Shown here piece after piece: positions 1,399 through 64,000 of a DNA stretch of 64,000 bases. Position 1 is the stretch's first letter. Each line of letters starts with the position of its first letter. Below the pieces are notes generated by a model that ran no database searches, was not told the DNA's origin, and worked only from the letters and a program-made list of their open reading frames with translations. Both the position numbers and the translations under genes were made by a program. The DNA comes from Chloroflexota bacterium (GTDB taxonomy: Bacteria; Chloroflexota; Anaerolineae; UBA4142): NCBI GenBank assembly GCA_016219275.1, contig JACRBM010000039.1, positions 24,751 to 88,750 of the forward strand, given 5' to 3'.

Positions 1399-2394
1399 AT
1401 GAAATCCTTCGAGCTCCATGACGCAGCCACCGTGCAAGAGGCGGTCGCGTTGCTCAACAAGTTCGGACCGACCGCCAAGATCGTGGCAGGCGGGAGTGAT
1501 TTGGTAACAGGCGTCATGAAAGACTGGGTTCACGGCAAAGGGATGCCCTATCCAGAAAAGTTGATTGATGTAACGACCATTCCGGAAATGGTCGGGATCA
1601 ATATCGCTTCGACCGGAAATGCGACGATTGGCGCGGCGACGACACTCACCTCCATCGCAGAATCCAAAGAACTGGATCAGCGCTATCCCGTGTTCACGCA
1701 AGCAGTATCGAGTGTTGCCTCGCCATTGATTCGCAACTTTGGCACGCTGGGTGGCAACATCAACCAGCGACCGCGTTGCTGGTTTTTCCGCGGCGAGAAT
1801 TTCGCCTGCTACAAAAAAGGCGGCGACTTTTGCTTCGCGGTGACGGGGGACAACCGGTATCACGCGATCATCGGCGGCGAGTTGTGCTACATCGTTCACC
1901 CATCCGATTCGGCAAGCGCCTTGCTGGCGCTCAATGCTTCAGCAACGATCGCCGGTCCCAGTGGGACGCGAACCGTCCAGTTCGATAACTACTTTACTGG
2001 ACCGCGCGAAGACGTGTTGCGCGAAAACGTTCTCAAGCCGGATGAGTTGATGGTCAACGTCAGCATCCCACAACTAGCGCCCAACACCAAGACCGCGTGG
2101 TTCAAGTTGAAAGACCGCCAGGTGTACGACTTTGCGCTAGTCAGTGTGGCGGCAGTTATCACTCAGGAAAATGGCGTGTGGAAAGATGGTCGCATCGTCC
2201 TGGGTGGGGTTGCCCCGGTGCCTTATCGCGCCAAGGTCGTCGAGGAGGCGCTCGCCGGCAAGAACATCAAGGAGAACATCAAAGCCGCGGCGGCGGCGAT
2301 CAAGACTGTCGCGCGACCGATGAGTTTGAATGCGTACAAAGTAGATATCACGATGGGCTTGATCGAGCAAGTTGTGCTGGGCGCGCTCGCGTAA
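1399..2394 (+). CDS. Molybdopterin dehydrogenase FAD-binding subunit (CoxM/XdhB-like)
   Basis: An SD (gggggagagg) precedes the ATG. N-terminal KIVAGGSDL and later GTLGGN motifs are typical of the FAD_binding_5/CO_deh_flav_C family. It follows the large subunit with a 13-nt gap. Confidence 0.8.
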   Translation: MKSFELHDAATVQEAVALLNKFGPTAKIVAGGSDLVTGVMKDWVHGKGMPYPEKLIDVTTIPEMVGINIASTGNATIGAATTLTSIAESKELDQRYPVFTQAVSSVASPLIRNFGTLGGNINQRPRCWFFRGENFACYKKGGDFCFAVTGDNRYHAIIGGELCYIVHPSDSASALLALNASATIAGPSGTRTVQFDNYFTGPREDVLRENVLKPDELMVNVSIPQLAPNTKTAWFKLKDRQVYDFALVSVAAVITQENGVWKDGRIVLGGVAPVPYRAKVVEEALAGKNIKENIKAAAAAIKTVARPMSLNAYKVDITMGLIEQVVLGALA

Positions 2395-2416
2395 GAGTTG
2401 GGGTAGTCCAGGCAAA

Positions 2417-2452
2417 ACCTTGCGAAGGTTGTAAACCTTCGCAAGGTTTACA
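2417..2452. terminator. Double palindrome AACCTTGCGAAGGTT / AACCTTCGCAAGGTT between convergent genes (putative bidirectional terminator); related unit at 43272..43290
   Basis: Each unit is palindromic. The same 15-mer recurs at 43272. Confidence 0.5.
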
Positions 2453-3254
2453 TGCCGGGTTCCAAAACGGCTTTGGTCGCGCGCACGACCCAGCCATGAA
2501 CGACGCCATTCGTCGCGATGTAACCACCCGTCGAGTGGAGCCAGGAGCCGCCTAGAATATCCGTGAGGACGCCGCCGCTTTCGCCGAGCACAACCGATGC
2601 TGCAGCGACATCCCATAGTTTCAGAGTCGTGTGATAATACGCGTGATAACGTCCGGCGGCGACGTAACACAGACCCAATGCCGGCGAACCCATCGCGTTC
2701 AAAGCAATCGCTTGCGTCGCGAGCAAGGTCGCAATATTCAAACTCTGTTGACGTTCTTGCATGTCACCGGGCAAATCGGTGCCGACAATCGCTTGATCGT
2801 ACGCGCTCTCGCCTTCAGCGACGAGTTGAACCGTGATCGGCTTGTCATTCAACCGAGCGTACTTGCCTTGAATCGCGTGGAACATTTCGTCGGTGCAGGG
2901 ATCGTAAACCACGCCGACGCGATAAACTCTTTCGTCGCGCAAGGCAATCGAAATTGCAAAATGGGGTACGCCCTGCGAAAAGTTCAGACTACCATCAATT
3001 GGGTCTACGATCCACAACGGATCGGCATCGGGCGGAACCGGCTCTTCACTCTCTTCAGCCAGGATGGCTTGGTCGGGAAAATCGGTCTGGAGGATGTCAA
3101 CGATGCGTTGTTGAATGGGCAGGGCGCTCTCGACCAACAGATCGCGCGGTCCTTTCCACTGTTGCGAACCTGGGTTGCCCAGCGACGCGATGGCGAGTTG
3201 TCCGGCTTGACGCGCGGCGCGCATCGCGGTATCGAGCGCTCGAGAATAATCCAT
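2448..3254 (-). CDS. Inositol monophosphatase family protein (SuhB-like)
   Basis: IMPase-family motifs are present (EESEEPVP, IVDPIDGS, WDVAAASVV). The start is placed at the internal MDYSRALD, because the upstream part of the ORF is low-complexity. Confidence 0.75.
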   Translation of the reverse strand: MDYSRALDTAMRAARQAGQLAIASLGNPGSQQWKGPRDLLVESALPIQQRIVDILQTDFPDQAILAEESEEPVPPDADPLWIVDPIDGSLNFSQGVPHFAISIALRDERVYRVGVVYDPCTDEMFHAIQGKYARLNDKPITVQLVAEGESAYDQAIVGTDLPGDMQERQQSLNIATLLATQAIALNAMGSPALGLCYVAAGRYHAYYHTTLKLWDVAAASVVLGESGGVLTDILGGSWLHSTGGYIATNGVVHGWVVRATKAVLEPGM

Positions 3255-3386
3255 TGATCCTCCTATTCCGGAATCGAAGACCTTCCAGGTCTTCGAGACC
3301 TGGAAGATCTTGACTGTTACTCGAAGAATAATCTTTTTAGGATGGCTCGTCAAGTCGGTCAATCCTTTTCACATTTGGAGTCCACC

Positions 3387-3992
3387 ATGTTCCGAATCAC
3401 CCTCTTCTTACTACTGCTGGTGCTCGTGACGGCGTGTGCTAGCCCAGCGCCATTAGCGCCATCAGCCACAACTGCTCCCGCGGCAGTCACGTCTGCGCCC
3501 AGCGCGCCAGTTAAAAGTGCGTCCACTCCGCTCCCGCTCCCATCGCAACCGACGACACAACCACTCGCGGCACGCACTCCAATACCATTTGTTGCGCCCA
3601 CCTTCGCACCGATCGTGTCTGCCCCGGTGAGCACCACTGCACCGACATCCGCTCCAACTGCCGCCGCAACGCGGGCGGCGACTACTGTGGCGACGGCAAC
3701 CGCAACGCGGGCGGCAACCTCCGCGCCGACGACCGCGGCGCAACCGCCGGCGGGTCCAACCGCGCCGGGTGTAGCCACCGGCGTGCGTTCGGAAACCAAA
3801 ATCGAGTTTGTCAACGCACTGACGACGGCAGAAGAAGTGGACGATTTGCGCTTGACGCTTTTACGGATTGCCGGCATTCTCGATGTTTCCGGCAACGAGA
3901 ATGCGATCACCATTGTCTACGATGCTGGGTTGATTTTGCCAAACCAGATCAAAGCCCGACTCGCGAGCATGGGGCATCCTGCCAAGCCATAG
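3387..3992 (+). CDS. Lipoprotein with Ala/Thr/Pro-rich low-complexity linker and small C-terminal domain
   Basis: A GGAG SD sits 8 nt upstream of ATG 3387. The N-terminus is a signal peptide with lipobox (LLLLVLVTAC). The linker is encoded by tandemly duplicated nucleotide repeats. Confidence 0.6.
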   Translation: MFRITLFLLLLVLVTACASPAPLAPSATTAPAAVTSAPSAPVKSASTPLPLPSQPTTQPLAARTPIPFVAPTFAPIVSAPVSTTAPTSAPTAAATRAATTVATATATRAATSAPTTAAQPPAGPTAPGVATGVRSETKIEFVNALTTAEEVDDLRLTLLRIAGILDVSGNENAITIVYDAGLILPNQIKARLASMGHPAKP

Positions 3993-4015
3993 AATTCCGA
4001 GAGTCCGGATTCAAG

Positions 4016-4417
4016 ATGGTAGAAAAACAGATCGTCCCGCGCACTCTGCTCCGCGTTGTGTTTGGATATGCCGTTGAGTGTTTCCCCGGCGCGTTGATCC
4101 TGGGTTACCATCAACTCAAGCGGATGTTTGTGCGCGCAGGGTTCGTGGTCAAGGTGAGCATGTCGCCCTTGAGCGATCTGCCGCCCGATACGAATCTTCT
4201 GCTCGTTCCAACAGCACTCGCCGAAGAGGCGCGGCGCGGCGCGTTCGATTGTCAAATCGAGGTGCTTGAGGATTTTTTAAACGCACCTATCTACAGCACA
4301 TTGATCCACCAACTTACCGAAAGCATCGAGTGGACTGCGCCCAAGATCGTCGGGCAAACAACGCCGAATGACGACGGCGAGATCGTCAATTATCGCGGTT
4401 ACGAACGGGTTGAATAG
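4016..4417 (+). CDS. Hypothetical protein (weak resemblance to PTS EIIB-like fold)
   Basis: It is a 133-aa ORF with protein-like composition and no confident family match. Confidence 0.4.
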   Translation: MVEKQIVPRTLLRVVFGYAVECFPGALILGYHQLKRMFVRAGFVVKVSMSPLSDLPPDTNLLLVPTALAEEARRGAFDCQIEVLEDFLNAPIYSTLIHQLTESIEWTAPKIVGQTTPNDDGEIVNYRGYERVE

Positions 4418-4442
4418 ACCGTTCGTCACATAAGGAGTTACT

Positions 4443-4688
4443 GTGCCTGCAGAGATTCAAGACTTGGCGCGCCGGCTGGAACAACAACTGACGGCGTACG
4501 AACACTTACACACGGACGAACTGAAAAGACTCCAAGACCAGATAGCGGCTTTTCAGCATTTACAGAACGACGAATTCCAGATGCTGCGGAACGAGTTATC
4601 GCAGTTGAAGCAAGCCCTCGGTGCAATCGAGGAGAGTGGGAAGCGGCTCTGGCTTGAACGAGAAGACACGCAAGTGATAAGCGGATAA
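4443..4688 (+). CDS. Hypothetical small coiled-coil protein
   Basis: It is an 81-aa ORF with an L/Q/E-rich heptad pattern and a GGAG SD upstream. Confidence 0.45.
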   Translation: MPAEIQDLARRLEQQLTAYEHLHTDELKRLQDQIAAFQHLQNDEFQMLRNELSQLKQALGAIEESGKRLWLEREDTQVISG

Positions 4689-4694
4689 TCCTTC

Positions 4695-5810
4695 ATGATC
4701 CTACGCCGTCTTTGCGCTTTCATTTTCTTGAGCTGTCTCGCCCTGTCGTTTTGGTACCTGCCCGTGGCTTTCGCGAGCGGTCCTGCGATTCTACAACTGA
4801 CCGACGATCACGCCGCGGATGTCCGACCGGCGTGGAGTCCCGATAACAAGACGATCGCGTACCAATCGAACCGCGAGGGCGCGTACCACATTTACCTGGT
4901 CAACGCCGATGGCAGTAATCCGCGTGCGTTGACCAAAGGTTCTTCCGACGACCGCCATCCCATCTGGATGCCCGACGGCAAAGCCATTCTCTTCGATTCA
5001 TTCGATGGATCGCGACGCGAAATTTGGATGGTCAATGTACTTGACGGCAACCTCAAGCAATTGACGAATTTTGGCGCGCTCGCCAGTTTTCCCGCGCCCA
5101 GTCCCGATGGGCAATGGATTTCTTTTTACGTTTTCAAGGATGAATCACTCGATTTGTGGATCGCGCGGAGGGATGGACGCGATGCCAAGCCGCTCACGCG
5201 CGAGCTGGCGAGTGCGCGCAACAATCAATGCACATTCGCGTGTCATTACGCCGCGTGGAATGCGGACAATCGTACCATCGCCTATTCCGCCGGCGAACTC
5301 GATACGATCTGGACGGTTGATCGCGAAGCCGGGTCGCCCAAGCGCGTCGTCGCGGACGGCGCGGACAATCACTTTCCCTGGTTTTTGCCGGATGGTCGGT
5401 TGGGATACGTTACCGAACACATCGAACCCGCCGCCGCGTGGACCGATGCCTGGGCGCTTGACTTGAAAACCGGTCAACGCACGCTATTGCAAAGTCGCAT
5501 GTCCATGCAGGGACCGGTAGAATGGAACAACGACAACACCAAAGTGTTATTCCACTCGCCGCGTGGGGGAAACTTTGATATCTATTTGATTGATCTCGGC
5601 GTTTCGAACGGCGTCGAAGCGCTGCAGGGCAAACCAATTCCAAGTGATCGCATCCAAAAAGCGGCAACCCCGGCGAGTCCGGTTGCCACGTCGCCAGCGC
5701 CCACGCAACAAACCGACCTGGGGTTGTTGACCTGGGTATTCCTGGGAACGATCGGGGTGTTCACTGCGGGTTTGGTCTGGCGGATTCTTCGTCGCCAGTC
5801 ACGGCGATAA
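4695..5810 (+). CDS. TolB-like periplasmic beta-propeller protein (PD40/WD40-like repeats) with C-terminal TM anchor
   Basis: The N-terminus is a signal peptide. PD40 repeats recur (AWSPDNKTIAY, IWMPDGKAILF, PSPDGQWISF). The C-terminus is a hydrophobic helix followed by RRQSRR. Confidence 0.7.
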   Translation: MILRRLCAFIFLSCLALSFWYLPVAFASGPAILQLTDDHAADVRPAWSPDNKTIAYQSNREGAYHIYLVNADGSNPRALTKGSSDDRHPIWMPDGKAILFDSFDGSRREIWMVNVLDGNLKQLTNFGALASFPAPSPDGQWISFYVFKDESLDLWIARRDGRDAKPLTRELASARNNQCTFACHYAAWNADNRTIAYSAGELDTIWTVDREAGSPKRVVADGADNHFPWFLPDGRLGYVTEHIEPAAAWTDAWALDLKTGQRTLLQSRMSMQGPVEWNNDNTKVLFHSPRGGNFDIYLIDLGVSNGVEALQGKPIPSDRIQKAATPASPVATSPAPTQQTDLGLLTWVFLGTIGVFTAGLVWRILRRQSRR

Positions 5811-49125: not shown

Positions 49126-49156
49126 AATCCGCGTTTATCCGCGTTCATCCGCGTCC
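49126..49156. repeat. Repeat family C half copy (aatccgcgtttatccgcgttcatccgcgtcc)
   Basis: It has only the right arm, with ATCCGCGTT triplication. Confidence 0.6.
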
Positions 49157-56514: not shown

Positions 56515-56578
56515 ACGAACATCATAGCGGCATCGCGGCAAAGTGTAAATGGTTGCAAGGTACTGAATACAAAAAATC

Positions 56579-56648
56579 GGACGCGGATTAACGCGGATGC
56601 ACGCGGATAAAATGAAAATCCGCGTTTGTCCGCGTTAATCCGCGTTCC
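56579..56648. repeat. Repeat family C copy 4
   Basis: It is ggacgcggattaacgcggatgcacgcggataaaatgaaaatccgcgtttgtccgcgttaatccgcgttcc. Confidence 0.75.
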
Positions 56649-56661
56649 ATTCCAAGATTAA

Positions 56662-57792
56662 TCACGGCTTTGGATACACCTGGACGAACGCGCCTTCCTT
56701 CACCTGGAACACAAACACGCGTTGCTCTTTCAAATCGCCGCTCGCATCATAATTCACCTTGCCAACGAGCGTCGCCAGATCGAGCGCGCGGATCGCGTCC
56801 GCGACGCGCGCGGCGTCGAGCGTGTTCGCTTTCTTCACACCTTCGGCGAGGACTGCCATCGCCGCATAACCTGGAACGCTGTACGTGTCTGGGTTGCGTG
56901 ATTCGACTTTTTGGTAATCGCTCCACCACGCCTTGTCGCCGACGATTTTCGGATCGGGCGAAATCGCGCCGACGTACGTGCCTTCGCTCGCGGGCGCGGC
57001 TTCGTCCACGTACGTCGAGTTAAAGCATCCATCCGAGCAAATGAATTTCGCGTTGATGCCGGCGTCGCGCAATTCGGGAAGCAAGACCATGCCTTCGGTT
57101 TCATAGCCCGCAAGGAAAACGACATCGGGTTGCGCGTTCTTGATCTGCGGAATGAATTTCGCGTACGTCGTTTGCGCTTCGGGAATTTTCACGACGGCGG
57201 CAGGCGTGATGTTGAGCGACTTGAACGCGTTCGCCATTTGATCGCGCAGACCATTGCCGTACTCATTGTCCGCGTGAACGACGACGACACGCTTGCCGCC
57301 AAGTTGCTCGACGATGAATTTGGCGAGCGCGGGCGCTTGCGCGGCATCGGTCGCGTTGACACGGAAAAAGTTGCGATACCCTTGCTTGGTCAGCGACACT
57401 TCGGACGCGGTCGGCGTGATGACGATGAGCGGCAAATCTTTATAGACTTGCATCGCGGCGAGCGTTTGCCCGCTGTTCAAGTGACCGATTACGCCGATCA
57501 CTTTTTTGCCTTGCTTGATCGCGTCCGCGATTTCCTTCGCCTTGTCCGCCGCGACATCCGAGTCCGCTTGATCGTCCAAGCCGATCACCTTGACGGTGTA
57601 GCCGAGCAGACCGCCCTGGCGATTGAGTTGGTCCGCCATCGTGCGCGCGCCGCCGACGACGGTTTGTCCGCCGTTCGCCTGCCAGCCGGACAACGGCGCG
57701 ACCGCGTAGACGATGACTTCGCCGCGCGGGGCGGTGGTGCAGGCGGTGGCAATGAGCGCGAGAAGCGCGAGTGTAATTATACATGTCTTCAT
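56662..57792 (-). CDS. ABC transporter substrate-binding lipoprotein, branched-chain amino acid type (Peripla_BP_6)
   Basis: It has a lipobox LIATAC and the LivK-family fold pattern. No permease genes are adjacent. Confidence 0.7.
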   Translation of the reverse strand: MKTCIITLALLALIATACTTAPRGEVIVYAVAPLSGWQANGGQTVVGGARTMADQLNRQGGLLGYTVKVIGLDDQADSDVAADKAKEIADAIKQGKKVIGVIGHLNSGQTLAAMQVYKDLPLIVITPTASEVSLTKQGYRNFFRVNATDAAQAPALAKFIVEQLGGKRVVVVHADNEYGNGLRDQMANAFKSLNITPAAVVKIPEAQTTYAKFIPQIKNAQPDVVFLAGYETEGMVLLPELRDAGINAKFICSDGCFNSTYVDEAAPASEGTYVGAISPDPKIVGDKAWWSDYQKVESRNPDTYSVPGYAAMAVLAEGVKKANTLDAARVADAIRALDLATLVGKVNYDASGDLKEQRVFVFQVKEGAFVQVYPKP

Positions 57793-57868
57793 TCGTATCT
57801 CCAGACAATCATGTAATATTTGGCAATTATCCAAATCTTATAGGATTTGAAAGTAACGCGTGAACTAC

Positions 57869-58741
57869 TCATCTCTCCTCTTTCGCTTCTGGCAATTCAA
57901 CCTTATATCCATATGCTTTCCATTTTTCAATGACAAATTCTTTGAAACCAGGAACCGGTCGTGAATTGCAGACAATTGCTAAATCTTTGCCTGACTTGGA
58001 ATAAAGAACGTACCCTGTAGAAATCTCATTATTTTCCGGTTTGGGTAATTCCAAATTAACCTGTTCTTGATAATAAAACATTGTGACTTTTTGTGGTAGT
58101 CCGTCTTGCATGTACCCCACAGCCTCGTACGAAATTAGTCCGAGATCGTCTAAATGTCTCAACCCATCAAATGTTATTCCGGCATCTTTGTAAATTGTTG
58201 ATTGGGCATTTTTATCGTAGATCAAAGGTATGGTATCACCCACATTCCAAACGAATGAACAAAGGCTTGAAAAAAGTTCCGCATCTGATTTATCAAGAGA
58301 TGCTAAGAGGTTGACAGTTCGCTTTGAAAATTTACCAGGAGAATTCGCTTCGCCCGCAAGTATCTTTGCCCAGATCTGTTGCATCTCATCATCAGAGACC
58401 AAACGACATCTATCGAAGAAATTTGTAATCCAGTCATCTTCGATTTCTCGAGGCCGCGCATCTTCTCGCACCCCTAAAAGGGCTTTTCGCGTAATTGTCT
58501 CAATGTTGTCTTGTTTCTTGGCTTCTTCAATCAGAAATCGATGCAACGCGCGTCGTTGCAGATCGGTAATCTCAATTTGCGAGGCTACTTTAATCTTCTC
58601 AGCGTGCGCTTCTGCTTCTGCAACCCTTCGAATCTGATACGGTCGAAAGATTCCACCAACTGCATCCGAAATTTTCTCGATCAAGACTGTAGCTGGTTTA
58701 GAAATCTCACCAATATTTATGAGTGCATTATTGTCCGACAT
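57869..58741 (-). CDS. Hypothetical protein in low-GC island (DUF2806/abortive-infection-like, tentative)
   Basis: It is 290 aa and codes in a ~40% GC segment against a ~62% GC background. It is cytoplasmic and helical. Its family resemblance is from memory only. Confidence 0.5.
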   Translation of the reverse strand: MSDNNALINIGEISKPATVLIEKISDAVGGIFRPYQIRRVAEAEAHAEKIKVASQIEITDLQRRALHRFLIEEAKKQDNIETITRKALLGVREDARPREIEDDWITNFFDRCRLVSDDEMQQIWAKILAGEANSPGKFSKRTVNLLASLDKSDAELFSSLCSFVWNVGDTIPLIYDKNAQSTIYKDAGITFDGLRHLDDLGLISYEAVGYMQDGLPQKVTMFYYQEQVNLELPKPENNEISTGYVLYSKSGKDLAIVCNSRPVPGFKEFVIEKWKAYGYKVELPEAKEER

Positions 58742-58815
58742 GGGTTGCGTCTCCTTTTAGGAATTGTTTCACACAAATAGCAAAGTGTCTTTTTACTTTT
58801 CACTTCCCCCGATAC

Positions 58816-58898
58816 ACCTCATCCATCGCGCCTTGCAACTCGTTCAACTTCGCGACCTGGTCGGCAATGTCATCGCGCAAGCGTTGCGCGCGGCTGTC
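58816..58898. repeat. 83-bp direct repeat copy A (duplicate of 3' end of gene 59753..60565)
   Basis: It has 81 of 83 identities with 59772..59854. Confidence 0.85.
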
Positions 58899-58915
58899 TG
58901 CGCCTCTCGTCATTT

Positions 58916-59506
58916 CTACTTTGCCTCTTTCAACACACGTTCCAACAAATCTGTGACGCCAAGTTGAGTTGACCATTGGCGCAAATAATCCAAATCCAAG
59001 CGCGCACCTTGCATCTTGACCACACCCAGCACATCGCGCCATTGCCGTTCCGATGTTTCGCCACCCAGCCGATACCATTCCAGTTTCGACAGAATCGTGT
59101 CCTCGGCGCTGGCGATGAACGCCGTGCGTTCGGGTTCGGTCGCGACGATTTGAGCCACGCGGCGCGCGAATTGCGCTTTATCATACGGGCGATTTTTTTG
59201 CGCGAACACGTCAACCTTGAACATCGTTTCCATGTGAATTGCATTGAAACTGCGTTGATGCTTCACCGCGTCACGAATCGCTTCCGCGTCCACATAGAAT
59301 GCACCAGAAAGAGCACGCGCGAGCGGCTCGGCATGTTCCAAACGCAAATCTGCGACCAGGTCTGCATCCATCGTCGAGCGCGGTTCGCCGTACACCGCGC
59401 TGGCAAGCGATCCGCCAATCAGATAACGCACTCCCAGTTTTTCGAGCGCTTCAATTACCAACAGAGTAACCGCAATCGGTTCAGTGATCATAATGACCTT
59501 CGCCAT
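58916..59506 (-). CDS. Minimal nucleotidyltransferase (Pol-beta superfamily; MNT/TA-toxin-antitoxin type)
   Basis: It has a GGSLASAVYGEPRSTMDADL motif (G[GS]x9-13Dx[DE]) and is 196 aa. Confidence 0.65.
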   Translation of the reverse strand: MAKVIMITEPIAVTLLVIEALEKLGVRYLIGGSLASAVYGEPRSTMDADLVADLRLEHAEPLARALSGAFYVDAEAIRDAVKHQRSFNAIHMETMFKVDVFAQKNRPYDKAQFARRVAQIVATEPERTAFIASAEDTILSKLEWYRLGGETSERQWRDVLGVVKMQGARLDLDYLRQWSTQLGVTDLLERVLKEAK

Positions 59507-59735
59507 ACACTCGCGCGGCAAGTTTCTCGCCCAGCAACAAATCTGCCAAACGTCGCTGCAGTTCGGCATCGGATGCGTCCGGATAGCGTTCTCGCAAACC
59601 TGCGAGTGCGAGCATCCGCACGGTTTGATTCAGCTCGCCAACCATTTCCATTTTGCGCCACGATGGTGCGCGGCGGAGCAATTCGATTTGCACGCGTTCC
59701 GCTTCGGTTGTGGTGTCTGCGGATAGTGTACTCAC
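59481..59735 (-). CDS. Small partner protein of the nucleotidyltransferase (putative HEPN-like/antitoxin-toxin partner)
   Basis: It is 84 aa, overlaps the NTase start by 26 nt, and has a C-terminal RVYGEGH (Rx5H). Confidence 0.4.
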   Translation of the reverse strand: MSTLSADTTTEAERVQIELLRRAPSWRKMEMVGELNQTVRMLALAGLRERYPDASDAELQRRLADLLLGEKLAARVYGEGHYDH

Positions 59736-59752
59736 TTTTTACTTTCGCCTCT

Positions 59753-60565
59753 TCACTTTTTACTTGCGTAGACCTCATCCATCGCGCCTTGCAACTCGTT
59801 CAACTTCGCGACCTGGTCGGCGATGTCATCGCGCAAACGTTGCGCGCGGCTGTCGGCAACATCGTCTTTCGAGCGAATCAACATCAACTGCGAATACACC
59901 GTGCCGAGGGCGGTCAGCGTCGCGTCGAGTTGCAGTTCTGCGCGTTCCATCGTTTGTTGCAACTGGTCGAGATTTTCTACTTGCGCGCGTTTCGATTCGA
60001 GCGCGTGCCGCGCTTGCTCGCGCACCGCGTCGTCATCTTCGCGCGCCACCCGTTCCATCAGTTCCCTGATTTCCCGCGGCGCGCTTTTCGCGTCGTGCTT
60101 GATGATCTCATCGCGCTCGAAATCATCCAGCCGCTGCGCCAATCGAAAAATCTGCGCGATCCAATTCGCGATGCCGGTCGTCGAATCTTGCAAGTGCTCG
60201 CGCAGAATGCCTTGCTCGCTATTGCGAATCGTCGCTTCGATGCGCTTACGATAATCGAGCGCGCGTTCGACGGAGGCGCGTAGTTTCTGCGTTTGAATGC
60301 TCGCGGGATTGAATTCCTCGCGAAACATTTCCGCGACGACTTGCGCGCCGGTGTTCACATCTTGAATGCTCGTAACGATGATCGCGATTTCCGCGACCGC
60401 GCCGATGATGAGCCAGTACCACCACTGCCACCATTCGAAGGGACGCGGCACAAAGTACGCGAGCAGAATCGTCAATGCAATCGTCGCCGCGCTTTCGAAA
60501 CGAAAGATCGCGTGCGTGATGATCGCGCTCGTGGCGCGGGTGCGGATGGGAGTATTTTTCGACAT
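59753..60565 (-). CDS. Two-TM membrane protein with long cytoplasmic coiled-coil (XpaC/TelA-like), partner of flotillin gene
   Basis: It has two N-terminal TM helices followed by a charged, heptad-rich region. Its last 27 codons are duplicated at 58816..58898. Confidence 0.5.
   Translation of the reverse strand: MSKNTPIRTRATSAIITHAIFRFESAATIALTILLAYFVPRPFEWWQWWYWLIIGAVAEIAIIVTSIQDVNTGAQVVAEMFREEFNPASIQTQKLRASVERALDYRKRIEATIRNSEQGILREHLQDSTTGIANWIAQIFRLAQRLDDFERDEIIKHDAKSAPREIRELMERVAREDDDAVREQARHALESKRAQVENLDQLQQTMERAELQLDATLTALGTVYSQLMLIRSKDDVADSRAQRLRDDIADQVAKLNELQGAMDEVYASKK
59772..59854. repeat. 83-bp direct repeat copy B (native 3' end of XpaC-like gene)
   Basis: It has 81 of 83 identities with 58816..58898. 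Confidence 0.85.
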
Positions 60566-60678
60566 ATTTTATCTGCGAAGCGAATCCACGCTAATTCTTA
60601 TCGCCCACGAAGAGCACGAAGGACACGAAAAAATCTTTGTGCGCCTTCGTGCCCTTCGTGGGCAGAATATTTTCTGGG

Positions 60679-60711
60679 TTTATCCGCGTTCGTCCGCGTT
60701 TGTCCGCGTCC
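60679..60711. repeat. Repeat family C half copy (tttatccgcgttcgtccgcgtttgtccgcgtcc)
   Basis: It has only the right arm. Confidence 0.6.
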
Positions 60712-60713
60712 GA

Positions 60714-62696
60714 TTATTTGGTCTCGTCCTTTTTCTCCGACTTCAAACTCTGCCGAATCTGTTCGCGCAGGGCTTCGGCTTCTGGCGAACGTTGTACATC
60801 CTGGGTCGCCGAGACGCCCATTCGCTCGGACAACAAGAGCGCCATCAGTCCTTCCATCACGTTGCCCGTGCCGCCTTGCTTGCCGTCGCCGCCGCCGATC
60901 AACACGCGCGGCACCACATCCACACGCGATTGTTGAATCGCTTCGGCGAAGCGATTGAGCACGGTTTGCGTAACCTGGAATTGCGGTCCGCCGTACGCGC
61001 GCACTTGCTCTTCGGTCGCCAATGCTTGCGCGATACCGATGCGCGCAACTTTTTCCGATTCGGCTTCGGCGAGCGTGCGAATCTGCGCGGCTTGTTGCAC
61101 CGCACGTTGATACTCGGCTTTACCCTGGTTCGATTGCACCGTGATGCTCAACTCGGACTCGGTGATGTGCTTTTGCATTTCCGCGCGCGCCTGCGCCTCG
61201 CGCAGTTCGCGTTCCTTCACCGCCGCGGTTTCTTGCCGACCGTACGTCTCGACCTGTTCCGTCGCGACCTGGCGCGAGCGCAACTGCATCAAAATCGTTT
61301 CGATTTGTTGATCGCCCACAGGCGGCGCGGGTGTGCCGATCAGCACTTCTTCGAGTTGGAGATTGTAATGCGTAAATTTTTCCTGCATCTCCTGACTCGC
61401 GATTTGCTGAATCACACTGCGTTCTTGGATGAGTTGAATCAGCGTCCGCGTCTGTCCGATATTCTTAAAGTACGCCGAGACCATCGGATCGAGGGTTTGT
61501 TCGACGAGTCGCTTGATGTCGCCAAAGCGTTGAATCACGAGCGGCGCTTTTTGATAATCAATGTGAATCACGACCGACAAAGGCAGAGACGGTTCGAACG
61601 CGTCTTTGGTGATGAGCGAAACTTCGGACAAGTTTTCATCGAGCCGATGCGAGCCGACTTCGCTCCGAATCCATTTCAAGATGATGTTCGTCGTCGGCAC
61701 CATAATCACTTTGCCGGCATACGTGTTGAACGCGTACTTGCCCGGCATCAGCGCTTCGCTCCACACACCGCGCTTGCCCCGTTGCACCATTTCGCCGTGC
61801 CGATATTCTTTGCCGGACAAATCCTCGCCCTGTTCGCCGGTGTACGATACGACGACGCCGACCGTACCAACCTCGACAATCGTTTTCTTGATCATCTCGA
61901 CAGTCGCGAACAAACGATTGACATAGTACGTACCTTCGACCATCACCTGCAACTGGCGTCCGCGAAAACCGTTTGCCGCCAAGAATTTATCCGCGTCCTG
62001 AAAATTGTTGTGATACGTGTCCGCATTGGTTGGCTTATCGCCCACAACCGGCGCGATGATTTCACCTTGCGGCAGGGAGACCCCATCGTGCACGGTAACG
62101 ATGCCAACCATGTCGTCGGTGTCTTTGATGACGACCGGACGAAAACCGTCGCGTTCGGCGATGACCTCTGCCATTTTGCGAATGACATCGGCTTCATCGC
62201 GATTGAGCGGCAGAGAAAAGACGCGCTCGTCGGTGATGACGACGAATTGCATCAGGTTGATCGCGTACGTCCCTTCACGCAAAATTCTCCGTTGCGGACC
62301 GCGTTGCCCGCCGTTTGCGAGAAACGCTTCGACATCCTGGAAATCGCTGACGATCGCGTTCGATGCGAGAACCTGGGTCGGATCGAGTTGCTTGCCGTCG
62401 CGCGCAAAGATGTAACCGATCTTGCCTTGTGGAATCGTCACGAGCGGCGCGATGTGAACGTGGTACTGAATCGGCATCAGGTAATGCAAACCGCCGCGCA
62501 AGACGTGCGATTGAAAACCGGCTTCGCCATTCAGCGCGATAAACCCGGACTTGATCGAACCCTTGCCGCTGAAACGTTTTTCGACGATGCCGATGCGACT
62601 GTTCGAGATGAAACGAAACCCGGACAGCGCGATCAAAATCACGAGCACGAACACGATCACCAACACAAAACCGAGTAGTGAGAGGACGATGTTCAT
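60714..62696 (-). CDS. Flotillin/SPFH (band 7) family protein (YqiK/FloT-like)
   Basis: It has an N-terminal TM, an SPFH domain and a long Ala/Glu/Gln-rich flotillin coiled-coil. Confidence 0.85.
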   Translation of the reverse strand: MNIVLSLLGFVLVIVFVLVILIALSGFRFISNSRIGIVEKRFSGKGSIKSGFIALNGEAGFQSHVLRGGLHYLMPIQYHVHIAPLVTIPQGKIGYIFARDGKQLDPTQVLASNAIVSDFQDVEAFLANGGQRGPQRRILREGTYAINLMQFVVITDERVFSLPLNRDEADVIRKMAEVIAERDGFRPVVIKDTDDMVGIVTVHDGVSLPQGEIIAPVVGDKPTNADTYHNNFQDADKFLAANGFRGRQLQVMVEGTYYVNRLFATVEMIKKTIVEVGTVGVVVSYTGEQGEDLSGKEYRHGEMVQRGKRGVWSEALMPGKYAFNTYAGKVIMVPTTNIILKWIRSEVGSHRLDENLSEVSLITKDAFEPSLPLSVVIHIDYQKAPLVIQRFGDIKRLVEQTLDPMVSAYFKNIGQTRTLIQLIQERSVIQQIASQEMQEKFTHYNLQLEEVLIGTPAPPVGDQQIETILMQLRSRQVATEQVETYGRQETAAVKERELREAQARAEMQKHITESELSITVQSNQGKAEYQRAVQQAAQIRTLAEAESEKVARIGIAQALATEEQVRAYGGPQFQVTQTVLNRFAEAIQQSRVDVVPRVLIGGGDGKQGGTGNVMEGLMALLLSERMGVSATQDVQRSPEAEALREQIRQSLKSEKKDETK

Positions 62697-62740
62697 AGTT
62701 TCCTTTCATGTGATGCGGACGAGCCGTCCGCCCTACAAAC

Positions 62741-64000
62741 CTAAAAGTACGTTGATAGAATTTTGTACAACTTGCGAATCGTCTCTGGGTCCGCGCGGCG
62801 CGAGAAACCGCCGGTGACTTCGGCGAGCGCGTTCAGCGCGTTGAAATCCGCGTCGTTGCCGTACGCAATGCTAAAGATAATGACCGGCACGCCACTTTGA
62901 TTGCCGCGCCGAATTTTCTGCACGAGCGCGTTGGTGTTGGTGGACGACGCGTTTTCGATGCCGTCCGTCATCGCGACAATCGCGTTGATGCGCTCCTTGT
63001 CGCCGCGTTTTTGGAGATCATCGTACGCGAACGCGACCGCGTCGAGGAGCGCGGTGCGTCCGTCCGCTTTGAACGCGCCAACGCGATTTTTGAGCGCGAC
63101 GCGTTGCGTCCCAATGTCTTGAAGCGCGACCGTGCCGTAAACGCTCGACGCGAATGGGACAAGTCCCACGCGATCGCGATCACCTTGAATCTGATCCAGA
63201 AAAGTGGAAAGAGCATCTTGCGCCTGCCCAAGTTTGTTTTGCTCGCCCATACTGCCCGACGTATCCACGACGAGCAAAATGTTCGCCGGTCGCTTGGCGA
63301 GCAACCAAGATGCTTGGACTGATTCGATGACCGCCGCGTTCGGCATTTGCAGCGTCGTTTGCGGTTGCGCGGGATCAACGCCATTCTGCGTTTTGATCGG
63401 TGACGCCGGATCGTCAAGTCGCAATCCCAGGTCTACCGGACGATAACCGGATTGCAAAACCAATTTTTGAATTTCCGGCGACAGCAAGAAATCGCGGAAA
63501 CGGCGATAGGTCAAGCGTTGATCGTCGGTCAGCCCAGGTTGTTCGAGCAACGCGAGCGGATGGTCTTGCCACAAGGTTCCTTCGACCGGATAAATCGCGA
63601 CGAGTTTGGTCGAAGATTTGGAATTGAAATAGATCACCAATCGCTCGGATACGACGAACGCATCGAGATAACTCCGTCCCTTGGACAAGACCTGGTCAAT
63701 CGTCGCTTGCTCGCCCTCGCCGTAATAGCGCACCGTCTTTTCGAGTGCGTTCACGTAATCGAGCGTCGCGCGATTCTTGACATCTTCTTCGGTCAGCGCG
63801 CGCGTCTTGTTCGCGCCTGCATAAAATTCGGCGAGCGTCGCGAGCAAGCCACTTGCGGAACTGGTCGAGGGATGGCTCCACTTGAAGTTGGGATCGTTTT
63901 TCGCTTTCGCCAGCAAATCGAGCCAGCCGATTTGTTTTTGCGGATAACCGAGCGATTGCGCGACATCGTTCCACATCGCGATCACAACCGGCGTCACGGC
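62741..64000 (-). CDS. von Willebrand factor type A domain protein with N-terminal substrate-binding-like domain, 5'-truncated by window edge
   Basis: It has a VWA MIDAS motif (LLVVDTSGSMG...TAL..A). The ORF runs off the window end. Confidence 0.7.
   Translation of the reverse strand, partial: AVTPVVIAMWNDVAQSLGYPQKQIGWLDLLAKAKNDPNFKWSHPSTSSASGLLATLAEFYAGANKTRALTEEDVKNRATLDYVNALEKTVRYYGEGEQATIDQVLSKGRSYLDAFVVSERLVIYFNSKSSTKLVAIYPVEGTLWQDHPLALLEQPGLTDDQRLTYRRFRDFLLSPEIQKLVLQSGYRPVDLGLRLDDPASPIKTQNGVDPAQPQTTLQMPNAAVIESVQASWLLAKRPANILLVVDTSGSMGEQNKLGQAQDALSTFLDQIQGDRDRVGLVPFASSVYGTVALQDIGTQRVALKNRVGAFKADGRTALLDAVAFAYDDLQKRGDKERINAIVAMTDGIENASSTNTNALVQKIRRGNQSGVPVIIFSIAYGNDADFNALNALAEVTGGFSRRADPETIRKLYKILSTYF

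Follow-up and report, generated by a model that had tools for sequence, protein, structure and literature searches.

How does a two-gene cassette come to lie between two nearly identical copies of the end of the gene in front of it, and do its genes form one system with the low-GC gene beyond? Both questions are raised by a 64-kb stretch of a Chloroflexota metagenome-assembled genome (MAG), hereafter the window, in which genes for an 84-aa protein (a84) and a 191-aa nucleotidyltransferase (NT191) follow a 270-aa gene (g270) whose 3′ end recurs just past them, ahead of a 290-aa DUF2806 gene. An earlier, sequence-only reading had taken the arrangement for site-specific integration of a defence or addiction module, possibly a new one. 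We find instead that a84–NT191 and the DUF2806 gene both belong to already described families, and that the repeat is best explained overall, with a probability of roughly 0.55, as a scar left by homology-driven recombination with a related genome.

The 89-nt repeat and the cassette between its copies

All features of the locus lie on the minus strand. They are listed by window position; the loci compared with them are designated by L-numbers.

63997–62741, minus strand: VWA-domain gene, the first in the direction of transcription
62696–60714, minus strand: SPFH/Band-7 gene, between the VWA gene and g270
59753–60565, minus strand: g270, open reading frame (ORF) of 270 aa, hydrophobic near the N-terminus and coiled-coil at the C-terminus; the insertion target, present with a second copy of its 3′ end
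59769–59857, minus strand: repeat copy A, part of the 3′ end of intact g270; the tail …YASKK* and a spacer to a84 come next
59481–59735, minus strand: a84, candidate MenA1-like antitoxin of 84 aa, with a GTG start and an 11-nt overlap with the nucleotidyltransferase gene
58916–59491, minus strand: NT191, candidate MenT1-like nucleotidyltransferase toxin of 191 aa
58800–59078, minus strand: ORF of 92 aa, overlapping the 3′ end of the nucleotidyltransferase gene in another frame, with no Pfam match
58813–58901, minus strand: repeat copy B, a 5′-truncated remnant of the g270 3′ end, with its frame intact to …DSRAQRLRDDIADQVAKLNELQGAMDEVYRGK* and its own stop at 58800–58802
57869–58741, minus strand: DUF2806 gene of 290 aa, low in GC, outside the bracketed cassette
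56662–57792, minus strand: PBP, Peripla_BP_6 lipoprotein gene (Pfam, 1.4e-53), the conserved right border of the variable spot

The two repeat copies (59857–59769 and 58901–58813 on the minus strand) align without gaps over 89 nt at 96% identity, with four mismatches, close to the 83 bp and two mismatches first reported; BLAST aligns 86 nt at 96.5%, and the longest identical block common to both copies is 49 nt. Copy A spans approximately codons –34 to –5 of g270, copy B starts 15 nt past the NT191 stop codon, and the last four to five codons are unlike between them (…EVYASKK* in intact g270, …EVYRGK* in copy B). The repeat period and the bracketed cassette both measure 956 bp, and the segment between the copies encodes a84 and NT191 only. 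A gapped alignment suggests about 25 nt more of match downstream (AAGTGA..AAAGTAAAAAG..ACACT), which was not significant (224 of 2000 shuffles), nor was the gapped extension upstream significant against shuffles. With only two copies in the 64-kb window, the repeat is not a dispersed family, which agrees with the proposed local duplication of the g270 3′ end. Like an integrative element, the cassette is flanked by direct repeats of a target 3′ end, and g270 itself is left intact.

The truncated ORF at 58800–59078 does exist and does carry the duplicated C-terminus, as had been noted, but its resemblance to anything is limited to the last 34 codons, that is, to the remnant; most likely it is not a gene and represents the remnant frame running back into the 3′ end of the nucleotidyltransferase gene. 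That gene has start candidates at 59491 (191 aa) and 59506 (196 aa). The NCBI record has 191 aa and homologues have 191–193 aa; the start at 59491 is the more probable, and would give the 11-nt overlap with a84. The DUF2806 gene stands out by its guanine-plus-cytosine (GC) content, 0.41 overall and 0.36 at third codon positions (GC3), against GC of about 0.56–0.60 and GC3 of about 0.65–0.73 in neighbouring genes. The background is thus about 57% rather than the 62% first set against ~40% for this gene; the cassette is at about 0.55.

Could the repeat be an artefact of assembly, a chromosome with single-copy g270–DUF2806 into which a 956-bp circle, or the cassette of another strain, was stitched through the 89 nt? 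The proteins NT191, a84 and DUF2806 are 100% identical to those of a deposited Chloroflexi MAG contig, and a 966-bp Logan unitig from an independent assembly (L001, SRR12113407) runs from the end of copy A through a84 and the nucleotidyltransferase gene to the start of copy B, so that both cassette junctions are present in reads. That unitig begins and ends inside the shared 49-nt identical block and so does not phase the two copies, and a mixture of chromosome and circle would also yield all four junction types. An artefact nonetheless seems very improbable: the copies differ at four positions and in their tails, a 49-nt block is spanned by normal reads and large k-mers, the deposited contig with the same genes is 88.7 kb long, independent assemblies show this architecture with repeats of only 81–93% identity, which are not confusable, and remnants occur in the same place in two relatives, L117 and L003.

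Probable history of the scar behind g270

Scanning genomes with g270 gave 29 loci, labelled Chloroflexi or Anaerolineae with few exceptions, in which the g270 orthologue always lies between a VWA or SPFH gene and a variable spot. The backbone in relatives reads VWA–(SPFH)–g270–[variable]–PBP, with a PBP orthologue past the variable region in every relative whose contig extends far enough. Empty-site alleles, which the sequence-only reading had proposed to look for, are found in at least 12 loci (L012, L015, L017–L020, L022 and L024–L028), where g270 is followed directly by PBP; their genomes are distant relatives (g270 identity 42–72%), and none is near-identical. Elsewhere a84–NT stands right behind g270 without a repeat (L002, L007, L010, L032–L034 and L118–L119) or further downstream (L023). 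Closer relatives carry other cargo, among it TIR_2 (L003), GmrSD (L004), a DUF433/DUF5615-PIN pair (L009), a DUF6036 nucleotidyltransferase with a small partner (L003) and DUF4037 (L013). The locus is a two-slot variable islet between g270 and PBP, a small defence/addiction hotspot.

Three related genomes (those of the window, L117 and L003) have a toxin–antitoxin cassette behind intact g270 and, past it, a remnant of the g270 3′ end. The window remnant runs from about –105 and is followed by the DUF2806 gene. L117, which has the closest nucleotidyltransferase (87% at the amino acid level), has a remnant of about 28–40 nt and then a 226-aa gene of 40% GC (1013–1693), whose D…E-x-K-like motif (VDVIGIRD…EVIGVEVK) suggests a PD-(D/E)xK nuclease. 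L003, the closest SPFH-type relative, has at the same site (2037–4140) an opposite-strand cassette of a DUF6036 nucleotidyltransferase and a 72-aa partner, with a remnant from about –80 (2720–2811) and then a 428-aa TIR_2 protein gene of 44% GC.

The two g270 ends of the window belong to different groups of relatives. The intact tail, YASKK*, is that of L117 and is near the YSSKK* of cassette-bearing L007, L032 and L033; the remnant tail, YRGK*, is how g270 ends in L003 and in the empty-site L015. An intact tail of cassette-bearing type beside a remnant tail of cassette-less type fits insertion with target regeneration, as first proposed; copy A has the appearance of a regenerated end, copy B that of the original end, displaced. 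The SPFH gene is absent in every other locus showing both an a84–NT cassette and the region upstream of g270, and is present in the window and in cassette-less L003, L006, L011, L014 and L016. At the DNA level g270 looks mosaic, its 5′ half being nearest to L003/L006 (85%; 78% for L007) and its 3′ half nearest to L007-type genomes (84%; 80% for L003). Together the tails, the SPFH pattern and the mosaic g270 favour a resident g270(YRGK*)–DUF2806–PBP that received [g270 3′ part–a84–NT].

In the homology-driven history that we prefer, the donor would be a related genome with the cassette already directly behind g270, which recombined with the resident through the homologous g270 3′ end, either by a single reciprocal (Campbell-type) crossover of a circularised fragment of ~1 kb or by one-sided homologous recombination plus an illegitimate second joint. 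The outcome would be intact g270 with the donor tail (copy A), then the cassette, the resident 3′ end (copy B) and the resident DUF2806 gene, the two copies resembling attL/attR. The element would carry no recombinase. The near identity of the copies would probably mean that the crossover fell close to the 3′ edge of the repeat or that gene conversion came later, and an addictive toxin–antitoxin pair would penalise repeat-mediated deletion, which may explain why the scar persists. Given that unbracketed cassettes stand behind g270 in relatives, that the cassette is at least as diverged as the backbone and that no recombinase motif was found in a crude screen, homology-driven recombination explains the scar equally well as or better than site-specific integration, whose signature the repeat had been said to be.

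Several points weigh against this history. The copies are 96% identical, yet the g270 3′ ends of sampled lineages differ by 16–20%, which calls for an extra assumption: that the donor was close, that the crossover fell at the very 3′ edge, or that gene conversion took place. One allele type is common to the remnants of the window, L117 and L003, but their starts differ (–105, –28 and –80, respectively), a pattern that also fits one old remnant followed by slot turnover, or remnants arriving with downstream cargo. Cassette DNA is 77–82% identical to that of relatives, not above the backbone at 82–89%, and so gives no sign of recent import from any sampled genome. Finally, an integrase could lie elsewhere in the genome: the absence of tyrosine and serine recombinase boxes refers to ORFs of at least 120 aa in the window and in 13 bracketed loci, in a crude regular-expression motif screen whose one match, in L107, was spurious.

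The order of events may also have been the reverse, with the cassette an old resident and the DUF2806 gene coming in from a g270–DUF2806–PBP relative, anchored in PBP and closed by an illegitimate joint past the NT stop codon, so that the donor's g270 3′ end became copy B. The cassette is indeed widespread behind g270 and diverges in step with the backbone, and in each of the three remnant-bearing genomes a remnant of different length is followed by another low-GC defence-type gene (DUF2806 in the window, the gene that is nuclease-like by sequence in L117, TIR in L003); variable junction positions suit illegitimate joints, and DUF2806 is compositionally the most recent-looking piece of the locus. 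We still regard this order as unlikely, and somewhat more so than the integrase-driven alternative weighed below, because the window's SPFH gene and g270 5′ half are of the cassette-less group whereas its g270 3′ half and tail are of the cassette-bearing group. Moreover, DUF2806 followed by PBP also occurs in a more distant relative (PBP at 77–78% DNA identity) and is not obviously new here, and chimeric repeat copies in the L095 class of loci (see below) show cassette and repeat as the moving unit there.

The target gene itself has no Pfam, NCBIfam or PADLOC family. The sequence-only reading had called it XpaC-like, but a Pfam search at E ≤ 10 gave ten weak, unrelated families, with PF10112 (XpaC/Halogen_Hydrol) absent, and NCBIfam gave nothing relevant, so this name was dropped. 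In L118/L119 (194–3850) and the window (60714–63997) g270 always lies downstream of VWA, in some genomes also with PspA_IM30 or SPFH, which hints, from gene order, that it may belong to a membrane-stress or scaffolding gene cluster.

Two further sequence features were observed. Three intergenic clusters of a threefold 10-nt unit, ATCCGCGTTn, occur in the window (49128–49155, 56570–56651 and 60667–60720); the cluster at 56570–56651 is a palindromic pair, and the segments 56570–56611 and 60679–60720 form a 42-nt inverted repeat (88%) enclosing the whole g270..PBP segment. Analogous arrays of genome-specific units occupy the same gene borders in relatives (e.g., AGACAAGG/CCTTGTCT in L002), and the clusters look like repetitive extragenic palindrome (REP)-like or terminator elements. 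Separately, L003 (2683–2715) and L112 (1045–1080) have in common a stretch of ~32 nt, GAATTATARTGCGAACGAATGAAAGATGCAAC, which on the other strand reads as a near-consensus promoter (TTGCAT, 17 nt, TATAAT) upstream of small reverse-strand gene pairs; the proteins of those pairs had no tblastn match to each other.

Bracketed cassettes in other genomes

We surveyed 54 metagenome cassette loci with sequence on both sides (few dozen loci in all) and found tight bracketing by direct repeats of 45–197 nt and 81–96% identity in eight of them, at five targets, and wider bracketing in four further loci; random segments of similar size, taken from these loci, were bracketed in 4 of 196 cases. About 75–85% of cassettes have no bracket. 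Each time, the bracketing sequence is copied from the local target. In L044, L045 and L049 this is tRNA-Ala(GGC), starting at about position 9 and reaching to its end; L051 has the 3′ end of a protein gene lying upstream, L056 a region resembling a terminator, and L095, L107 and L110 the 3′ end of a convergent gene lying downstream.

L044 and L049 have the cassette, its leader and the NT-to-remnant junction in common, while the host DNA beyond the remnant differs; in L049 the D-arm part of the remnant is of the L044 (element) type and the D arm of the functional tRNA is host-specific. In L095, L107 and L110 a 1087-nt cassette is 96–98% identical, the target gene 86% identical and the far flanks unrelated. 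The repeat copies there are chimeric, alike towards the cassette and divergent towards the host DNA, with the switch at about column 109–117 in both the upstream and the downstream copies, as expected from one reciprocal crossover between an element copy and the chromosomal target. This chimerism implies that the moving unit in that class is [target copy + leader + a84 + NT], ~1.28 kb long and with no recombinase gene. Across the family, bracketing points to Campbell-type insertion of a unit of ~1–1.3 kb without an integrase of its own.

What enzyme, if any, directs such insertion is where the evidence divides. Short and divergent repeats, coincident switch points and targets at tRNA and gene ends lean towards a site-specific enzyme; the lack of conserved cassette ends, the variable junctions and the predominance of unbracketed cassettes lean towards homology-driven events. 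The junction is the same and the switch point similar within the L095/L107/L110 class and within the L044/L049 class, and remnant boundaries vary among the window, L117 and L003.

The principal alternative for the window is accordingly a non-autonomous integrative element resembling the cis-mobilizable elements (CIMEs), in which a tyrosine integrase supplied in trans by a helper island or phage would join the attP-like copy on a circle of ~1 kb to attB in g270, the targets in other genomes being tRNA-Ala or other gene ends. The targets are indeed classic ones for integrases (3′ ends of tRNA and protein genes, with the gene regenerated) and the repeats are short, at 45–197 nt; the inferred crossovers of L095 and L110 fall in the same interval of 10–20 nt, inside a 14-nt identity block, in repeats only 81–86% identical overall, a poor RecA substrate; in the tRNA-Ala class the anticodon stem-loop region, flanked by the D arm and the variable loop, holds the crossover; and two different cassettes with remnants occupy the same g270 site (window and L003). 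We consider it improbable for the window all the same. The crude screen found no recombinase motif in the 64-kb window or the 13 bracketed loci, cassette edges are not conserved between target classes (15 to 87 nt of unrelated sequence separate the NT stop codon from the repeat), the remnant start varies between the window, L117 and L003, some 75–85% of cassettes have no bracket, and many relatives have the cassette behind g270 with no remnant.

As a more general and quite tentative proposal, a84–NT pairs might be integrase-less miniature integrative elements, circles of ~1–1.3 kb holding the two genes plus a captured gene end or tRNA part of 45–200 nt. Such elements might, if we venture this far, insert by one reciprocal crossover, regenerate the target, spread among genomes that share the target and persist by addiction. 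It is conceivable, with as little confidence, that a recombinase of the host or of a helper, as yet unrecognised, carries out their recombination or, as the most speculative variant, that the cassette proteins assist in it. Searches of the literature yielded nothing specific on toxin–antitoxin cassettes flanked by target-derived repeats without an integrase.

Other surveyed loci show arrangements of related interest. In L063 a direct repeat of 103–106 nt (87%; 1810–1912 and 3756–3861) brackets a84–NT together with a 315-aa dehydrogenase-like gene, and contains a T-arm/acceptor-like end, a hairpin and a TTGCAA-17-TATAAT promoter; as a tRNA or tmRNA 3′ end it was rejected, ARAGORN and Rfam giving nothing significant. 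L074 has a tRNA-Glu 142 nt upstream of a84, yet no duplication. In L120–L129 (L120, ~3521–5481) the cassette stands between a 43-aa methyltransferase fragment (motif I region) and an intact 249-aa methyltransferase, with no repeat at the DNA level; this could be an old, decayed bracket or a coincidence.

The proteins and their closest known systems

We identify a84–NT191 as a candidate MenAT1-type toxin–antitoxin pair on the grounds of fold, conserved residues, conserved pairing and fusions. In fold comparison the best PDB match of each window protein was the corresponding MenAT1 chain, that is, two independent predicted models each select their own counterpart in one solved complex. NT191 has the bi-lobed Pol-beta-like nucleotidyltransferase fold of the MenT toxins and a Pol-beta signature of the type hG[GS]x9-13Dh[DE]h (GGS…DxD; IGGSLASAVYGEPRSTMDADL), and a putative MenA1-like small antitoxin gene, whose product is predicted to have four helices, lies directly upstream; fold and residues are in accord with the original recognition of a minimal Pol-beta nucleotidyltransferase with an overlapping small partner as a toxin–antitoxin-type module. 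The family alignment shows no variation at G26, G27, D44, K136 and D153, and almost none at S28 and D42. The catalytic residues of MenT1 are T39, D41, K137 and D152 (PMC10435456); T40/D42/K136/D153 of NT191, which are invariant or nearly so in the family, are numbered close to these and by position and conservation appear equivalent to them.

Of 80 metagenome loci 74 have room for a gene before the NT gene, and every one of these has an a84 homologue immediately upstream; many cluster representatives are single-chain fusions of 280–295 aa with the a84-like domain before the NT domain. The family comprises 8116 clusters at 50% identity (E ≤ 1e-3), almost all labelled "hypothetical", and is centred on Chloroflexi and cyanobacteria; the suggestion of a previously undescribed pairing fails on this conserved family and on its best fold matches, the MenAT1 components. 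No cassette was found in phage records, and plasmids gave six distant matches only (34–44% identity). As to the fusions, P0361, P0363 and P0371 are examples, and they make up ~40% of the best 150 cluster representatives.

Profile libraries speak less clearly, and two of their results tell against the identification: DUF1814/AbiEii (Pfam PF08843) did not match NT191 even at E ≤ 10, and the sole library match of a84, PF18993 "Rv0078B-related antitoxin", is sub-threshold at E 0.016 (Pfam, NCBIfam and PADLOC). The other matches of NT191 are likewise sub-threshold, to aminoglycoside nucleotidyltransferase (E 0.016) and to PADLOC AbiEii (E 0.003 over 31 residues). A precomputed PF08843 match exists for 3 of 120 close NT191 homologues, and in the PDB neither NT191 nor a84, nor an NT profile built from 41 sequences, found a meaningful sequence match. 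The other module type first entertained, an MNT–HEPN pair, was rejected, a84 being an 84-aa protein of MenA1-like fold without a HEPN match in Pfam, NCBIfam or PADLOC; a candidate HEPN Rx4-6H motif, R75-x5-H81, is not conserved, H81 falling in a variable column.

MenT1 adds nucleotides to tRNA 3′ ends and so blocks aminoacylation, and its antitoxin blocks it by direct binding (PMC10435456). By analogy, NT191 would add nucleotides to tRNA 3′ CCA ends, blocking aminoacylation and translation, and the small helical a84 would block the active site of NT191 by binding to it. Given their 11-nt overlap, the two genes are probably translationally coupled. A scan of 57700–60750 for sigma-70 promoters and terminators found no more than in shuffles, and so says nothing on transcription of the cassette.

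Two kinds of locus have nucleotidyltransferase genes side by side. In another group of genomes, L130–L139 (e.g., L130, 4658–4987), the a84–NT pair is followed directly by a 109-aa NTP_transf_2 gene, a classical minimal nucleotidyltransferase, so that two different small nucleotidyltransferase modules are neighbours. In L047 (5793–6864) the first cassette is followed directly by a second, diverged NT gene (29% identity) and by another copy of a84 with NT fragments, which suggests tandem accumulation of a84–NT cassettes.

The 290-aa protein matches PF10987 (DUF2806) at 1.1e-38 over residues 64–262, above the cut-off, and Abi_alpha at 3e-4, which together with its GC content upholds the description of the gene as DUF2806/Abi-like and foreign. 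It is a stand-alone protein with DUF2806, the sole domain reported for Belisama. That system, a single gene found in integron cassettes of Vibrio cholerae, gives protection from phage, and at high multiplicity of infection the culture lyses (bioRxiv 10.1101/2024.07.02.601686); here such protection is known for the Vibrio protein only. Homologues of the window protein number 3494 and are spread over cyanobacteria, Acidobacteria and further phyla, at 55–70% identity. In L112–L115 a 71%-identical homologue lies directly upstream of the orthologous PBP gene, making DUF2806 followed by PBP a recurring arrangement at this spot. The gene is probably a stand-alone defence candidate of the abortive-infection type.

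That NT191, a84 and DUF2806 should form one three-component defence system, acquired as one module, was implied by the sequence-only reading, and the three genes are adjacent and co-oriented in the window, with all three families seen in defence or addiction contexts. The evidence makes it scarcely credible: DUF2806 stands beside a84–NT in none of the ~100 other cassette loci examined, its homologues in L112–L116 have other neighbour genes, GC is 0.41 for DUF2806 against ~0.55 for the cassette, a remnant with a stop codon lies between them, leaving DUF2806 outside the bracket, and the same slot holds unrelated genes in L117, L003 and L002. The DUF2806 gene is a separate acquisition, compositionally foreign and unrelated to the a84–NT pair.

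The apparently exotic module thus resolves into two recognisable items, a MenAT1-type pair and a Belisama-type DUF2806 gene. MenAT1 itself (Rv0078B–Rv0078A of Mycobacterium tuberculosis) is a short-antitoxin member of the MenAT/AbiE DUF1814 family, and resembles the window pair in having a small helical protein upstream of a bi-lobed Pol-beta nucleotidyltransferase of ~190 aa (195 aa in MenT1, 191 aa here) with the T/D/K/D set at nearly the same catalytic positions. MenA1 is made of one long and one short helix, and it stands to MenT1 at 1:2 in their complex. MenAT1 differs in sequence (identity only ~11–14%, with no PDB sequence match) and in its antitoxin (68 aa, against 84 aa with four predicted helices for a84), and the window family is distinguished by frequent antitoxin–toxin fusions and by its centre in Chloroflexi and cyanobacteria. 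The comparison links a very large "hypothetical" family to the experimentally studied MenT1/MenA1, with the testable prediction of tRNA 3′-end extension. With Belisama the window gene has in common a stand-alone protein whose sole recognisable domain is DUF2806, a remote Abi-alpha similarity and a horizontally scattered distribution; it differs in lying in another phylum and outside an integron, and it is likened to the Vibrio protein by domain, not by alignment.

The less ordinary aspect of the locus is the recurrent bracketing of a84–NT cassettes by copies of their own targets with no integrase found by the crude screen. Integron cassettes are likewise cargo units of ~1 kb with one or two genes, in one orientation and in a variable array, with toxin–antitoxin and Abi content; the window repeat, unlike attC, is the coding end of a neighbouring gene and is found only at g270 and its remnants. 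No intI-like gene or attI was seen and no recombinase appeared in the crude screen, no formal scan for attC or integron integrases having been made. Tyrosine-integrase islands and CIMEs share with the window the direct repeats of a target 3′ end, the regenerated target and the empty sites in relatives and, in the a84–NT family, insertion in tRNA-Ala and chimeric attL/attR-like copies; they differ in that the window element is only ~1 kb long, has no integrase in cis by the crude screen and no conserved ends, leaves a variable remnant boundary and also occurs at the same site without repeats.

Closest to the history we prefer are Campbell-type (single-crossover) insertion-duplication and the homology-facilitated illegitimate recombination of natural transformation. 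Campbell-type insertion likewise uses one homologous anchor, duplicates it on both sides and yields chimeric copies with one switch point; the difference is that the anchors here are very short and divergent (45–197 nt, 81–96% identical). Should a systematic survey bear the recurrent bracketing out, it would explain the movement of tiny addiction modules from genome to genome and the persistence of their scars.

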